Positions 2,665 through 43,164 of a DNA stretch of 64,000 bases are shown piece after piece; position 1 is the stretch's first letter, and each line of letters opens with the position of its first letter. Below the pieces are notes generated by a model that saw only the letters and a list, made by a program, of their open reading frames with translations, was not told where the DNA came from and did not search any database. Made by a program: the position numbers and the translations under genes. The stretch comes from Alphaproteobacteria bacterium (GTDB lineage: Bacteria; Pseudomonadota; Alphaproteobacteria; CAAGCB01; CAG-977). The DNA is taken from positions 34,690 through 98,689 of the forward strand of contig JAKSVU010000004.1 in the NCBI GenBank assembly GCA_024413465.1, read 5' to 3'.

Positions 2665-2739
2665 TGGCTGGGGCGGCAGGATTCGGACCTGCGCATGACG
2701 GAGTCAAAGTCCGTTGCCTTACCACTTGGCTACGCCCCA
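2665..2739 (-). tRNA. tRNA-Gln (anticodon UUG), CCA encoded
   Basis: Reverse complement reads TGGGGCGTAGCCAAGTGGTAAGGCAACGGACTTTGACTCCGTCATGCGCAGGTCCGAATCCTGCCGCCCCAGCCA. It has a 7-bp acceptor stem with the U1-A72 pair typical of bacterial tRNA-Gln, anticodon stem ACGGA/TCCGT with loop CTTTGAC, and a T-arm ending GGTCCGAATCC. Confidence 0.9.
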
Positions 2740-28297: not shown

Positions 28298-28309
28298 GGG
28301 ATTTTTTTT
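28271..28309. terminator. bidirectional intrinsic terminator overlapping the fumarase stop codon
   Basis: AAAAAAAATCCCTCAA (28271-28286), 7-nt loop, TTGAGGGATTTTTTTT (28294-28309). The TGA at 28295-28297 lies inside the 3' arm. Confidence 0.8.
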
Positions 28310-28493
28310 AAGCAAAACAATCTACAATTTTGCCACATCCTTCTTTTGCGGCGGGAACTATGCTCTGAGAAATAAGATCAACGATAGCTTGATCTTGTTT
28401 TGAACCTGCTTTTGTTGCTTGCAATGCTAGTTGCTGAGCTAATTGGGCTTGTTGCATTGCCATCATTTGTTGGGCTACACTAGATAAATCCAT
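28308..28493 (-). CDS. small YjfB-like (putative motility protein family) protein, 61 aa
   Basis: MDLSSVAQQMMAMQQAQLAQQLALQATKAG...QAIVDLI resembles the Q-rich YjfB family. GGAG lies 8 nt upstream of the ATG at 28493; the track start is 28523. Confidence 0.5.
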   Translation of the reverse strand: MDLSSVAQQMMAMQQAQLAQQLALQATKAGSKQDQAIVDLISQSIVPAAKEGCGKIVDCFA

Positions 28494-28659
28494 GTTGTTG
28501 GCTCCTATCAAATAACTGTACACAACTATATTGTATTATATTTTTTTAATAATTTCATTATATTTTTTTAAAGAGACATGATATTCTCTGGCTATGTATT
28601 GATTTATCTTGTTTTTTTAAGTATAAAAATTCGTAGAATTATTTGTTTTTAGGTGTTTT

Positions 28660-38627: not shown

Positions 38628-39893
38628 ATGTCTTTTTTTAATGGAAAATTATTGGTTGCCCAAGGAGGTGGACCATCTGCTGTGATTAATCAATCATTGG
38701 TAGGTGTTGTTTTAGAGGCTAGAAAATTTCATCACATTGATTTAGTTTATGGGGCTGTTCATGGTGTGCGTGGAATAGTAAATGAGGATTTTGTTAATTT
38801 ATCAGGGGAAACTTCTCACAACTTAGAAATGGTTGCGGGAACACCTTCTTCTGCATTGGGAACAACAAGGGATAAACCGGATTTAAAGTATTGCCAACAA
38901 ATGTTAAAGGTAATGCAGGCTCATAATATTCGATATTTCTTGTATATTGGGGGAAATGATTCTTCAGACACTATCCGAATAATCAGTGAGCAGGCAAAAA
39001 AAGAAAAATATGAGTTGCGTTGTATTCATATTCCGAAAACAATAGATAATGATTTGATGTGTAATGATCACTGTCCAGGATATCCTTCTGCGGCAAGATA
39101 TGTTTCTCAAGCCTTTATTGGTTTAAATCGTGATAGTTGGGCTTTGGGTGGAACAGTTATTGCAGTTGTTATGGGAAGACATGCAGGATTTTTAACTGCA
39201 GCAGCGTCAATGGGGAAAAAATTCCCGGATGATGGGCCTCATTTAATTTATATGCCAGAAAGAGTTTTTGACGTAGATACTTTTGCAAATGATGTTCGTC
39301 GTGTTTATGAAAAATATGATCGATGTGTGATTGCTGTGAGTGAAGGTATTCATGATGCAGAGGGAACACCAATCATTACAAAATTAACACAGAATTTTTC
39401 GCGTGATGCTCATGGAAATATACAATTGTCAGGTTCTGGAGCATTAGGAGATACTTTAGCTCAAATTTTGCGTGAAAAAGTTGGTATTCAACGTGTTCGT
39501 GCAGATACGTTGGGATATATGCAGCGTTCTTTTGTTGGTTGTGTTTCTGATGTTGACCAACGTGAAGCTCGTGAAGTCGGTGAAAAAGCCGTTCAATTTG
39601 CAATGTGGGGAGACAGAGATGGTTCTGTTGCAATTAAACGGATAGGTTTCTATATGTGTGATTATGATTTAATTCCATTAGAAGATGTTGCTGCAAAAAC
39701 AAGAACAATGCCTGATGAATTTATTACGCCAGATGGAAATGATGTTACAGATGCATTTAGAATGTATTTGCGTCCTTTGTTGGGATCAAAAATGCCAGAT
39801 GCATACAGGTTAAGAGCGCATTTTGTTCCGAAAATTTTGAACGAAAATTTACCAACAAATGCAGAAAAACAACCTAAATTGCCACAATGGTAA
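38628..39893 (+). CDS. pfp: 6-phosphofructokinase family, probably PPi-dependent
   Basis: YIGGNDSSDT has Asp where ATP-dependent enzymes have the second Gly of GGDGS. PKTIDNDL and MGRHAG are also present. 421 aa. Confidence 0.8.
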   Translation: MSFFNGKLLVAQGGGPSAVINQSLVGVVLEARKFHHIDLVYGAVHGVRGIVNEDFVNLSGETSHNLEMVAGTPSSALGTTRDKPDLKYCQQMLKVMQAHNIRYFLYIGGNDSSDTIRIISEQAKKEKYELRCIHIPKTIDNDLMCNDHCPGYPSAARYVSQAFIGLNRDSWALGGTVIAVVMGRHAGFLTAAASMGKKFPDDGPHLIYMPERVFDVDTFANDVRRVYEKYDRCVIAVSEGIHDAEGTPIITKLTQNFSRDAHGNIQLSGSGALGDTLAQILREKVGIQRVRADTLGYMQRSFVGCVSDVDQREAREVGEKAVQFAMWGDRDGSVAIKRIGFYMCDYDLIPLEDVAAKTRTMPDEFITPDGNDVTDAFRMYLRPLLGSKMPDAYRLRAHFVPKILNENLPTNAEKQPKLPQW

Positions 39894-39898
39894 AATAG

Positions 39899-39928
39899 AA
39901 AATCCCCAAAAATAAAGGGGATTTTTTA
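39899..39928 (+). terminator. intrinsic terminator of pfp
   Basis: AATCCCC (39901-39907), 9-nt loop, GGGGATT (39917-39923), then TTTT. Confidence 0.75.
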
Positions 39929-39956
39929 TTGATAAAAAAAGGGAATATAATATAAT
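39929..39956 (+). promoter_or_regulatory. near-consensus sigma70 promoter
   Basis: TTGATA (39929-39934), 16-nt spacer, TATAAT (39951-39956). Predicted transcription start is near 39963. Confidence 0.55.
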
Positions 39957-40014
39957 TTTCATTATCAAATTAAGTAGTTTAGTTTGAATGTGCCTGAAAA
40001 TAGGTGCGATGGCC

Positions 40015-40171
40015 TTCACAAGCCAATTTTACTCATATCGGTATTGGATAAAAATGCCGTTAATTTGTGTTTTACACAAAATTTTATCCCTAACCTCACG
40101 GTTGGGGATGTCTGCTTTGAATGTTTGTTCAGAAGAAGTGGACGGCTATCAGTATGAGTATGGTTTGTGAA
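40015..40171 (+). ncRNA. unclassified structured RNA element (candidate cis-regulatory leader or sRNA)
   Basis: Closing helix: TTCACAA (40015-21) with TTGTGAA (40165-71), G22.U64, CCA (23-25) with TGG (61-63), 4-nt bulge, TACTCATA (40030-37) with TATGAGTA (40153-60). Further pairs: GATA/TATC, and GCCGT (40056-60) with ACGGC (40142-46). Three internal hairpins include the apical CCCTAACC-TCAC-GGTTGGGG (40088-40107). Confidence 0.45.
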
Positions 40172-40209
40172 ATCCCCGACCGCCTGTTATTGGCGGTTGA
40201 GAGGGATTT

Positions 40210-41668
40210 ATGAAGAAATATATATCAATATTATTTATGTTGCTGATGTTGATTACTACAAAGGCAATTTGGTTAGAATTTCAGACTAAAGTAAAAATTT
40301 ATACAGATATACAGACTGATACAAAGATATCTTTAATTTACAAAAAGAAATTAAATTCAAAAGCAATACGATTAGAAAGTACACAAAATGTTGCATTTCG
40401 TTTAAAGGGGCGTACGATCTCCTATTTTAAAGTTAATGTTCCAGAAAATGTAAAAGTTAATTATGTAAAAATATTTGGATTAAAAAGGCAAAAAATAGTT
40501 TTGTCTGAGAATAACGAATTTGTTGGTAAAATTTACGGTTTTCCACGCTTCTATGGTATAGTTTTGTTAGGTTTTTTCTTTTTATTTTTGATATTTTTCG
40601 TCATTAAAAGGTTTTCTTATCATATTGAAGATATGAAAATTAAACCAAGGTTATATTCTCTTGATTTATTTAGAGCATTTATAGCGATAATGGTTCTTTT
40701 ATTTCATGCACAAATTCATGGTATATGGGGTATAAAAAATGAATTTATTAGAAATAATATATCGTTAGGTGCTGTGTATATGGATGCATTTTTTATTCTA
40801 TCAGGATTTTTACTATGTTATCTATATGAAGGTAAAATGAAATTAAATTCACCTGATGATATTAAGCTATTTCTTTTTAAAAGATTTATTCATATATATC
40901 CTAATTATATTGTTTACATGGTAGTTTCGATAATATTGTTTCCAAGTATATTTAAAAAGGATGTTTTTTTTTGTTAATTTCCTTTGCTTACAATCATTTT
41001 TCCCAACATTATGGAATTATAATGGAAATGGTGGATTATGGTTTATTTCATGTATATGTTTGTGTTATTTGCTTTTTCCAATAAGTATATGGATTTCTCA
41101 AAAATTTTCATTTAAAGTTGTTCTTTGTGTTTTGTATTTTTTAATTTTTTTTTCAAATAATATAAATGGACTTTATTCACAAATTGGTTTTTACTATTCA
41201 CCGATTTATAGGTTTTTAATTTTTTTTGTTGGAGTAGAGATTGCAAAAATTCATTTAGAAAGAAGGTTTTTATTTCCTATAAAAATGTTACTATGCTTGT
41301 TAATGTTCCTATGTATATTATTTGGTTTTTTACCGAAAATGGATTTTGTTCCCAATGTTAAATTTGGATACAACTATACTTTTTACGCAATATTTAGTGT
41401 TCCGCTTTTTTCAATTCTTATACTATGTTTAGTAAATATAAATAATATTTCATTTTGTAGATTTTGTAAGACACGATTTATTGATTTTTTATCAAAAATT
41501 TCATATTCCATATATTTGTGGCAAGGGCTTCCTCTAGGATATAAAATTATTTTTAATGGTGAGTGTTCTTTAGTTAAATTGGTTTTGTATACATTATCTT
41601 TTGCAGCTTGTGCATATTTTATTATTGAAAAGCCTGGTGCAAAATTGTTGAAAAAATGGATAGGATAA
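40210..41668 (+). pseudogene. acyltransferase family 3 (OafA/O-acetyltransferase-like) gene interrupted by a frameshift at a T9 tract
   Basis: Two overlapping ORFs (40210-40977 and 40961-41668) together make one multi-TM acyltransferase-3 protein (RLYSLDLFRAFIAIMVLLFH... in ORF1, remaining TMs in ORF2). The frames switch at T9 (40964-40972), and T8 would give one ~485-aa ORF. Confidence 0.7.
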
Positions 41669-41699
41669 AAAAGAGGAGTTCAAAACTCCTCTTTTTTTT
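41667..41699. terminator. bidirectional intrinsic terminator
   Basis: A-run, AGAGGAGT (41672-79), loop TCAAA, ACTCCTCT (41685-92), T-run. It lies between convergent genes. Confidence 0.8.
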
Positions 41700-43164
41700 A
41701 TTTTTCTAGATTTTGTTCGATGTATTTATTCAATAATTGAACACCGAAACCAGAAGATCCTTTTGGACAGAATATATTGTCCTTTTTAGCCATTGTAACG
41801 CCAGCAATGTCAATATGAGCCCACTTAACGCCGTCCTTAATGAAGTTCTTTAAAAATGCTGCTGCAGTGCAAGAGCCAGCATCACGAACGTTTGTTGAAT
41901 TTCTGATGTCCGCAATTTGAGAAACGACCATATCATCAAATGCTTTGCATAATGGTAATCTCCATACTTTTTCATCAGTTATTGTGGCTGCTTGTTCAAG
42001 TGATTTAGCAAGTTCATCATCATTTGCAAATAGACCAGCATATTCAGAACCAAGAGCAATAATAATAGCACCTGTTAACGTTGCTAAATCAATAACAATA
42101 GGGGCTTTAAAACGTTCTTGTGCATACCATAAAGCATCTCCTAAAACTAATCTACCTTCAGCATCAGTATTAATTACCTCCACTGTTTTTCCTGAAAGTG
42201 AAGTTACAATATCTCCGGGATGTTGAGATTTATCAGAAGGAATATTTTCAACAAGAGCCATAATACCAACAATGTTAACTTTTGCTTTTCTCATTGCCAA
42301 CGTTTGCATTGTTCCTAAAACGGTTGCAGCTCCAGCAAGATCTTCTTTCATATCTTCCATGCCGTTTGCTGGTTTTAAACTGATACCACCAGAATCAAAA
42401 CAAACACCTTTACCAACTAAAACAGCATGAGTACTTTTGTCTTCAGGAACACCTTTCCATTGGATAACAACAAAACGAGGAGGATTAATACCACCTTTTG
42501 CAACAGCAAGCATTAAATTAAAACCTTTTGATGCCAAAGCTTTTTCATCATAAACTTCAACAGAGAGACCGTATTTTGATAATTCTGAAGCACGTTCAGC
42601 TGCTTTTATTGGTGTCATAACGTTAGAGGGTTCATTTACCATATCTCTAGCAGTATGAATCCCTTTGTTTAACGCAAAGTATTTTTCATATTCAGCTTGT
42701 GCTGTTCTAAAATCTTTAGTTAATAAATAAAATTCAGAAACCGAAAAATCATCTTTCACGTCAGTTTTATATTTATTAAATTTATAGGAAGTAATTTTTG
42801 CGCCAAATCCAATGAGTTCAGCTTTTAACGTATCACAAGCAAAAGAAACGGAAGTAGCTTTGTGAAGAGCTGTTAACTTATAAGCATGAGCTCCGATTTC
42901 TTTCATATGTTCTTCGGTTTTATCATCTTGTTTTCCTAATCCAAGACATAAAACTTTTGGATATTCATTTTCTTCAAGGGATGTAAACAAATAGGATTGC
43001 CCAAGTTTGCCTTTGAATGATGCAGATACGAGAGCTTTCATCAAGTTCCCCTTAAAATAAGCATCAATTTTTCTTGCTGTTTCAGAGAGAACATCATTTT
43101 CATATACTCCCACAATTAAAAATTCAGTTGTAGAAGTTCTTTTTTGCTTAAATAAAATTTCCAT
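41698..43164 (-). CDS. pepA: leucyl aminopeptidase (M17)
   Basis: Motifs VGKGVCFDSGGISLKP and NTDAEGRLVLGDAL. Confidence 0.9.
   Translation of the reverse strand: MEILFKQKRTSTTEFLIVGVYENDVLSETARKIDAYFKGNLMKALVSASFKGKLGQSYLFTSLEENEYPKVLCLGLGKQDDKTEEHMKEIGAHAYKLTALHKATSVSFACDTLKAELIGFGAKITSYKFNKYKTDVKDDFSVSEFYLLTKDFRTAQAEYEKYFALNKGIHTARDMVNEPSNVMTPIKAAERASELSKYGLSVEVYDEKALASKGFNLMLAVAKGGINPPRFVVIQWKGVPEDKSTHAVLVGKGVCFDSGGISLKPANGMEDMKEDLAGAATVLGTMQTLAMRKAKVNIVGIMALVENIPSDKSQHPGDIVTSLSGKTVEVINTDAEGRLVLGDALWYAQERFKAPIVIDLATLTGAIIIALGSEYAGLFANDDELAKSLEQAATITDEKVWRLPLCKAFDDMVVSQIADIRNSTNVRDAGSCTAAAFLKNFIKDGVKWAHIDIAGVTMAKKDNIFCPKGSSGFGVQLLNKYIEQNLEK

Follow-up and report, generated by a model that had tools for sequence, protein, structure and literature searches.

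The DNA considered here is a stretch of 64,000 nucleotides from an alphaproteobacterium (contig JAKSVU010000004.1), which we call the window, and our subject is the region at its positions 39929-40209, between pfp, the gene for pyrophosphate-dependent phosphofructokinase, and a gene for a membrane acyltransferase. All elements of this region are given on the plus strand. In our opinion the region is a self-contained module: a sigma-70-type promoter, followed by a structured leader of about 250 nt of the acyltransferase mRNA, which would act as a riboswitch-like attenuator of four segments and belongs to a multi-copy family. We give this reading a probability of roughly two thirds. The word riboswitch is used as a working model, drawn from the sequence comparisons described below.

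At the minimum free energy (MFE) the region 39960-40215 folds with -96.7 kcal/mol, whereas shuffles of it give -59.4 +/- 4.4 (z = -8.42) and none of 200 is as good; the minus strand of the same region reaches only z = -4.75. The fold contains a closing helix of 19 bp with one G.U pair and a 4-nt bulge, exactly as had been proposed in the initial annotation of this DNA. Its 5' arms (40015-40037) consist of P1 at 40015-40025, with the family core at 40017-21, and P1b at 40030-40037; they pair with 40161-40171 and 40153-40160, respectively, the 3' arms spanning 40153-40171. RNAduplex assigns -23.5 kcal/mol to these arms. Enclosed by this helix the MFE fold has P2 (40039-40059, CGGUAUU/AAUGCCG, pairs 40039-40045/40053-40059; family helix 5, where the alignment is imperfect), P3 (40064-40080, UUUGUGU-UUU-ACACAAA; family helix 6), P4 (40086-40109; family helix 7) and a remodelled P5 (40110-40143, stem 40110-40118/40135-40143), the last also judged from A5, our MAFFT alignment of 50 leaders. 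The initial annotation had read GATA/TATC and GCCGT/ACGGC as an extension of the closing helix, which is not what we see: both in the fold and in relatives these bases make the P2 hairpin. It had also placed three hairpins inside the helix; those at 40064-40080 and 40086-40109 are there, but the third is 40110-40143 and not 40115-40135. Further 5', the MFE fold has P(-1) (39965-39987), a variable hairpin at the predicted transcript start, at the place of which relatives have a hairpin of variable sequence as well (A5), and P0 (40007 being its end and 39990 its beginning; GUGCCUG-AAAA-UAGGUGC, family helix 1). Next comes H5' (40011-40024, GGC/GCC, family helix 2), which holds the 5' arm of P1 in its loop. 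H5' and P1 make a pseudoknot in typical members of the family; H5' of the window competes with the extended P1.

The family became visible via the acyltransferase, as homologues sharing its N-terminal extension lead to loci with an upstream architecture like that of the window. An alignment of two acyltransferase sequences as query returned no relatives, and one of 66 sequences was required to reach the related loci. The search pattern for the family was made of the most conserved strings (ACGTATGTYCAGA...TTAAAGGT) and applied to contigs of one genome per species in GTDB. It matched 88 stretches, nearly all in gut or rumen Alphaproteobacteria known as metagenome-assembled genomes (MAGs), several per genome, and 84 distinct copies remain after removal of chance matches; there are at least seven in UBA2903 and in UBA6347, and at least five in UBA6324 and in RUG12246. 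When a profile of 73 copies is used with nhmmer, it finds the window at 39990-40232 (E = 1.3e-13, 48.9 bits), spanning the P5 of the window with a gap, and the isolated intergenic region with E = 1.1e-14. Searches with the window sequence itself are far less productive: by nhmmer the single sequence has no match at 55 pfp loci, because synteny is lost outside very close strains, and a scan of metagenome contigs for window-specific 16-mers gave 120 chance matches and no family member. Viral contigs yield a single chance match, hence this is not a phage element.

According to the initial annotation, many dispersed copies would have pointed to a palindromic repeat. Repetitive extragenic palindromes (REP) and miniature inverted-repeat transposable elements (MITE) are indeed structured intergenic sequences that occur in several copies in related genomes, and so are these leaders. 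However, the element is single-copy within the 64 kb of the window, and every copy in relatives is a promoter-leader-gene unit with its own SD (Shine-Dalgarno) sequence, 5' of a gene of the same orientation. The arms of the long helix are moreover unique to each copy and compensated, not duplicated. We therefore reject the MITE/REP interpretation.

Neither does the element belong to a class that is already catalogued. Rfam 15, whose families include the known riboswitches, the T-box, 6S, SRP, RNase P and tmRNA, EAR, JUMPstart and small RNAs of alphaproteobacteria, has in gathering and in E-value mode no family that matches the element in the window or in 12-13 related loci; the best sub-threshold matches score at most 19 bits and are unrelated. 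The statement of the initial annotation that no signature of a known riboswitch, 6S, SRP, RNase P or tmRNA can be seen is thus confirmed by a direct check. We did not find the family described in Fremin & Bhatt 2021 (PMC8040213), in Weinberg 2017 (PMC5737381) or by keyword searches of the literature, supplementary motif lists not being covered. Apparently it is an undescribed family, of which the window element is a divergent member. A side observation concerns taxonomy: contigs L168, L178, L192, L210 and L217 (CAVCSV01), binned as 'Limosilactobacillus gorillae', carry the leader together with genes typical of the family and are probably mis-binned.

Covariation of the helices in relatives, to which the initial annotation had looked for a check, is indeed strong. 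It was judged on A5 with anchoring by the profile HMM, pair counts and a comparison of arms from the same and from different copies. In the closed fold 85.2% of the cells are paired; sliding the 3' partners by 1-3 columns lowers this to 40-52%. Compensatory changes occur at 53 of 70 pairs, against 34.5 +/- 2.8 in shuffles, none of 500 of which reaches 53. P0 is 92% paired, with compensation at 6 of its 7 pairs; H5' (GAGC/GCUC) 96%, with 3 of 4; P1 97%, with 5 of 5 (for example C-G 24, G-C 12, A-U 9); P3 86%, with 10 of 10; and P4 95%, its CCCC/GGGG core being invariant. Since H5' covaries and has the 5' arm of P1 in its loop, the two constitute an H-type pseudoknot. P1b was tested alignment-free because its sequence differs in every copy. 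The RNAduplex mean for P1/P1b arms is -18.0 kcal/mol within the same copy and -6.3 between different copies. Of the 5' arms 54 are distinct, and the own partner is the best of 71 possible ones in 57 of 71 copies. The 19 bp of the window are a closing helix of this copy-specific, compensated kind. The closed fold has 310 G.U/U.G cells against 94 A.C/C.A cells, and the antiterminator helix described below has 29 against 5, an excess that fits selection on the plus-strand RNA. A conserved, aptamer-like domain with covariation, such as riboswitches have in general, is therefore present.

The 3' end of the leader is a hairpin of 15 bp and -22.7 kcal/mol (40170-40209), which we call the sequestor, since it overlaps the SD GAGGG and abuts the AUG. 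The pairing of AAATCCC (40170-40176) with GGGATTT (40203-40209) over the SD had been suspected from the start, and it is borne out: it encloses CGACCGCC/GGCGGTTG and is the window's form (AAAUCCC/GGGAUUU) of an anti-SD:SD pairing that the family has before the start codon. What we call segment 3 is AAAUCCC plus CGACCGCC (40170-40184), with the loop 40185-40191 next; then follow GGCGGUUG (40192-40199), an AGA bulge and segment 4 (GGGAUUU, 40203-40209). Of 60 copies in relatives, 55 have the SD (GGRGAG) paired with CUCYCC, a C-rich string located 3' of P1, and 42 show a U-run behind an inner GC hairpin, which resembles an intrinsic terminator; the outer helix covaries (C-G 26, U-A 13). A likeness of GGCGGTTG (40192-40199) to the ops element, GGCGGTAG, was dropped because GGCGGTTG forms the 3' side of the inner hairpin, covaries there and has GGAGGGU in its place in L056. 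Between SD and AUG, family copies have 5-8 T that double as the U-tract of the terminator (e.g. L063 1930-1946, L141 780-799), and the length of this run varies between orthologous leaders (5, 6 or 7 T).

Segment 3 has a second possible partner. The 5' arm of P4, AUCCCUAACC, is anti-SD-like (segment 1) and its 3' arm, GGUUGGGGAU, mimics the SD (segment 2). Read from the sequence, 40100-40109 (GGUUGGGGAU) can pair over 10 bp with 40172-40181 (AUCCCCGACC), and this 2:3 helix (40100-40181) is mutually exclusive with both P4 and the sequestor. The initial annotation had noticed its core, the C-run with GGGGAT; this alternative now proves to be longer, conserved and covarying in the family. Window and family agree in this: P4, a hairpin with a CCCC/GGGG core, has a 3' arm complementary to the 5' arm of the anti-SD hairpin, and in the family that P4 arm (GGUCGGGGAG) can pair with the anti-SD string together with the foot of the terminator stem (CUCCCCGACC). 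The 2:3 helix is 92.5% paired in the family, with 18 G.U at a single position, and its flanks covary (GGU/ACC 19, GAU/AUC 10, GUU/AAC 3, GUU/AGC 5). Mutually exclusive helices of an expression platform, 2:3 versus P4 plus sequestor or terminator, are thus present as in riboswitches generally, their energetic accessibility being uncertain.

Further support comes from three strain-level relatives, L056, L345 and L346, in which the order CLC-pfp-[leader]-acyltransferase-pepA(-)-CorA is kept. In L056 and L346 the acyltransferases, about 25% identical to that of the window, are preceded by leaders of a second type, whose sequence is unrelated and has diverged too far to be found with the profile of 73 copies. 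This second type is strongly structured (z = -6.7); between L056 and L346 there are three compensatory substitutions in P1b, and a G-C pair of the small 5' hairpin (H5') is replaced by A-U. The 3' arm of the hairpin equivalent to P4, GGGCGGAUUU, is a perfect 10-nt complement of the 5' arm of the anti-SD/terminator hairpin, AAAUCCGCCC. Hence, the 2:3 helix is retained with unrelated sequence: it is the structure that is conserved, and not the sequence.

The promoter completes the module. It matches the sigma-70 consensus at 11 of 12 positions (39929-39956: TTGATA at 39929-39934, a 16-nt spacer, TATAAT at 39951-39956) and stands behind the intrinsic terminator of pfp (39899-39927, stem ATCCCC/GGGGAT and then a T-run), which forms the upstream boundary of the unit and is kept at the same locus in L056, L345 and L346. 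That a near-consensus promoter follows the pfp terminator, as had been claimed, is correct. The distance from the end of the -10 element to P0 is 33 nt; in about 45 of 71 family copies, a promoter-like TTGnnn-17-TAT(C/T)CT has its -10 ending 28-39 nt 5' of P0. The window copy hence has both its own promoter and a co-oriented gene of one of the classes typical of the family, surface and methylase genes.

How these parts may work together we infer, as to switching, direction of control and effector, from the anatomy and the covariation. The transcript would begin with P(-1) and P0, continue with the long-range P1/P1b helix, pseudoknotted in typical members, and with P2-P5, and finish with the anti-SD:SD hairpin, which in most relatives bears the GC stem and U-run of a terminator as well. 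Segments 1 and 2 would be the 5' (UCCCC) and 3' (GGGGA) arms of P4, segment 3 the anti-SD and segment 4 the SD. With 1:2 and 3:4 paired, i.e. in the closed fold, translation would be blocked and, in relatives, transcription terminated too; with 2:3 paired, the terminator stem would be broken, the anti-SD occupied and expression allowed. An effector, either a small ligand or a protein, might bind the conserved P4/P5 core of the closed fold and set the balance, in which case the default state would presumably be OFF.

Several observations weigh against this reading. The closed state is favoured by 22 kcal/mol in the window (median 12 kcal/mol in the family), and in the 2:3 state of the window the freed 5' arm of P4 can re-pair the SD, so that no SD-free state is predicted at equilibrium and any switching must be kinetic or effector-driven. 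The family has a conserved internal loop in P5 (5' strand ACGUAUGUYCAGA, a stem P5b and the 3' strand UUAAAGGUCA); in the window its 5' strand survives as AUGUUUGUUCAGA (40121-40133) in the loop of a hairpin, while P5b and the UUAAAGGUCA strand are absent, and no U-run follows the 3' hairpin. The frame of the acyltransferase is broken at a T9 tract (40964-40972, giving ORFs 40210-40977 and 40961-41668), and this particular copy could be degenerate. The MAFFT alignment behind the pair counts has imperfections in P1b and P2. Support from RNA libraries consists of assembled contigs in gut metatranscriptomes, among them leader-only contigs such as one of 282 nt that ends at a relative's start codon; these speak for presence only, and DNA carry-over is possible.

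The energetic preference would also suit an alternative, a constitutive structured 5' untranslated region (UTR), in which fold and SD hairpin dampen translation or stabilise the mRNA with no effector and no switching; no ligand is known, which agrees with it. We nevertheless regard it as unlikely. If the 2:3 helix never formed, one would hardly expect it to covary and to be kept with other sequence in the L056-type allele; in relatives it also extends over the foot of the terminator stem.

The losses in P5 and the broken frame, together with the fact that a protein search with the 255-aa ORF of the window gave no match at 1e-20, could alternatively mean that the window holds a decaying leader remnant on a pseudogene, regulating nothing any more. 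We see a small chance for this. The window copy retains every helix, the anti-SD:SD pair and the 2:3 helix, all still perfect. Its gene (40210-41668), encoding an Acyl_transf_3 membrane acyltransferase (Pfam) with an N-terminal extension of about 140 aa, becomes a continuous ORF of 485 aa, colinear with L345, L056 and L346, if one T is removed (T8); the break is either a slipped-strand OFF variant, i.e. phase variation, or a homopolymer assembly error. L345 is an independent sample with a leader 100% identical to window 39960-40209 and an intact acyltransferase of 482 aa, although its coding DNA diverges immediately past the start codon; the protein is a mosaic with a window-like N-terminus and an L056-like remainder. 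Since P5b and the 3' strand are absent we file the window copy as a divergent variant and not as a canonical member, and, given the remodelled P5 and the lacking U-run, probably as a translation-only one. It may be an attenuated or simplified variant.

Two observations on these strains deserve to be recorded. L345 differs from the window in the promoter spacer by A8 instead of the A7 tract at 39934-39940 (L345 47-58) and by one A/T change; comparing these two sequences, the step from A7 to A8 shifts the -35/-10 spacing from 16 to 17 nt. The pfp-pepA interval (window 38628-43164; L056, L345, L346) is a hypervariable slot, in which no fewer than two unrelated types of leader and four alleles of the acyltransferase (25-73% identity) occur.

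What lies downstream of the other copies bears on the remaining alternatives. Each family copy precedes a different gene. By Pfam analysis of 58 downstream proteins, these include EcoRI_methylase (6), Acyl_transf_3 (6), PEGA lipoproteins (6), Autotransporter (4), N6_N4_Mtase (3), type ISP/IIG enzymes (2), LicD plus cytidylyltransferase (1) and a LicC/LicA-like protein (1); the remainder includes Cys-rich secreted proteins, a pilin-like protein and unknowns. Acyl_transf_3 is downstream in the window and in at least five other copies. Most downstream units appear to be single genes, and on the upstream side there are housekeeping genes of various kinds, among which no regulator or recombinase recurs. 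Surface-decoration and DNA-methylation genes are classes that are phase-variable elsewhere.

This repertoire suggests a further alternative, namely that the element acts at the DNA level: the inverted repeats of 10-12 bp (GGTCGGGGAG ... CTCCCCGACC) would be sites of an invertase or recombinase (inverton, cassette exchange), structure being secondary. The resemblance to gut contingency loci and invertons is considerable. O-acyltransferase, LicD/LicC-type enzymes, autotransporters, lipoproteins and DNA methyltransferases are shared with them, as are short inverted repeats and homopolymers (T9 in the window gene, A7/A8 in the promoter spacer, T5-8 between SD and AUG in relatives), and covariation of an inverted repeat is symmetric. 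Moreover, three leaders (L152, L189, L218) are chimeric, and one 5' flank plus leader is found with strain-dependent downstream modules, the breakpoint being directly after the anti-SD. We nevertheless consider this alternative very unlikely. The segment is inverted in 0 of about 70 full-length copies, and contigs of 8 runs contain no strand-changing joints, although contigs drop minor variants and a rare inversion is possible. The promoter lies outside the repeats, no recombinase recurs beside the copies, G.U exceeds A.C by 29 to 5 in this very helix, and a recombination site would have no use for the covariation seen in P1/P1b and in other helices. It is the RNA fold, with its G.U-tolerant covariation, that is conserved. 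An inverton proper, i.e. an invertible promoter, is rejected on the same grounds: repeats are present, but the promoter is outside them, orientation is 70 to 0 and no recombinase recurs.

Recombination around the leaders is nonetheless real, as indicated by the three copies with mismatched arms and by L196-like leaders joined to a module that we call X. The P1/P1b 5' and 3' arms of L152, L189 and L218 do not match each other and match arms of other copies; these leaders are either recombinants between paralogous leaders or chimeras of MAG assembly. Contigs from other samples that carry the 5' flank and leader of L196 run past the anti-SD into module X. This conserved module of about 160 nt stands in for the 5' half of the leader at three loci (L150 2055-2700; L144, L148), and the L150 unit is bracketed by a 17-nt complement, GAGGTTGCTTTCAAAGG / CCTTGGAAAGCAACCTC. 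A weakly similar inverse copy of X follows the anti-SD (CTCCCCG, then CTATG...AAAGCG..) in eight others, including L177, L187, L189, L193, L208, L218 and L223, and is itself followed by a small HTH_17-like ORF and type I restriction-modification genes (hsdM, hsdR). Module X may be an island boundary, a second type of platform or a long-range RNA helix.

One might also suppose that the region is an independent gene for a trans-acting small RNA of about 210-250 nt, ending at the 3' hairpin. It does have its own promoter and a strong 3' hairpin, and the 282-nt metatranscriptome contig is a relative's leader alone. However, in the window as in 55 of 60 relatives the SD is part of that hairpin, which reaches up to the AUG of the following gene. 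All copies are co-oriented with the downstream gene, and the hairpin of the window has no U-run; we give this supposition a very poor chance.

No better placed is the idea of an RNA for processive antitermination, of the EAR or put kind, or of a site where a NusG/RfaH-type factor is loaded, for read-through of terminators in surface-structure operons. Leaders before genes of the surface-polysaccharide type, with a complex pseudoknot just 5' of a terminator, would suit it. But the EAR and JUMPstart models do not match, most downstream units are single-gene, and sequestration of the SD indicates translational control as well; we hold it to be highly improbable.

An RNA thermometer can be dismissed almost entirely: the SD is buried in a hairpin, but one of 15 bp and -22.7 kcal/mol, the guts of the hosts are at constant temperature, and a conserved upstream domain of 200 nt would be unnecessary. 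The initial annotation had spoken of a riboswitch or thermosensor. Comparative data support the riboswitch-like part of this statement, as a working model, while the thermosensor is unlikely because both the sequestor and the whole fold are very stable.

Among known regulatory leaders, our riboswitch-like attenuator is close to two kinds. Like riboswitches whose platforms combine a terminator with SD sequestration, above all the second-messenger classes (c-di-GMP-I/II, cGAMP) that stand before surface and adhesion genes in many copies per genome, it is a conserved, multi-helix, pseudoknotted 5' leader with strong covariation and with mutually exclusive helices that include SD and terminator, and it occurs in several copies per genome before non-homologous genes of related function. 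Unlike them, it has no sequence or structure match in Rfam 15, its domain is unusually large (about 200 nt), its helices differ between copies of one genome, and its regulon adds orphan and type ISP DNA methyltransferases. With the four-segment attenuators (trp leader; PyrR, TRAP, T-box) it shares the alternation of 1:2 plus 3:4 (terminator) and 2:3 (antiterminator), segment 1 being the anti-antiterminator. It differs from those in that segments 1 and 3 mimic an anti-SD and 2 and 4 an SD, in that the closing-helix domain encloses 1 and 2, and in that there is no T-box or PyrR-site match and no conserved leader peptide.

Attenuation by a leader peptide was considered separately and ruled out, as no conserved short ORF covers segment 1. 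The longest leader ORFs have 26-80 codons with scattered ends, and the ORF from the conserved AUG has 7-84 codons across the family. A 60-codon ATG ORF of the window (39988-40170, plus strand) crosses the leader and stops right before the anti-SD; it is not conserved, and because comparable ORFs vary in length and end we treat it as incidental.

As to the setting, 316 nt separate the stop codon of pfp (38628-39893, PF00365) from the acyltransferase start at 40210, in a window with 32% G+C. The Pfp protein shares 83-91% identity with proteins encoded in MAGs of gut and rumen Alphaproteobacteria, one of which is 'Acetobacter sp. CAG:977', and the gene order downstream of pfp is not kept in those species. 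That this is the only gap over 200 nt, as was stated initially, hinges on how genes are called: in a crude ORF map, four further internal stretches of at least 240 nt remain. One of these contains a tRNA gene (2668-2739, minus strand), the sole Rfam match in the window. Another, a 'gap' of 362 nt between two long genes, is mostly occupied by a plausible ORF of 71 aa (28308-28523, minus strand; MYSYLIGANNMDLSSVAQQMMAMQQAQ...), which resembles a genuine small protein.

A wider interpretation is that the family is a new class of effector-sensing RNA switch, which coordinates a 'contingency regulon' of surface decoration, adhesins and DNA methyltransferases/restriction in uncultured gut Alphaproteobacteria, and which also serves as a portable expression site. 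We offer this as a speculation that is rather doubtful as it stands. The anti-SD is precisely where the conserved core stops and where the downstream modules begin to differ between strains; if the speculation is true, recombination at or inside leaders would place other genes behind a regulated promoter, much as in an integron or expression-site system, but with regulation by RNA. If the attenuator is confirmed, it would represent a class of large, pseudoknotted regulatory RNA outside Rfam, present in at least 5-7 copies per genome of a gut lineage that is uncultured and little studied. The four-segment design with SD and anti-SD mimics is compact and testable, and the family supplies dozens of natural 'compensatory mutant' copies inside single genomes. 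The leaders precede cell-surface and methylome genes, which decide phage sensitivity, immune recognition and colonisation, and the identity of the effector would reveal the signal for a joint remodelling of the surface and the restriction-modification repertoire.

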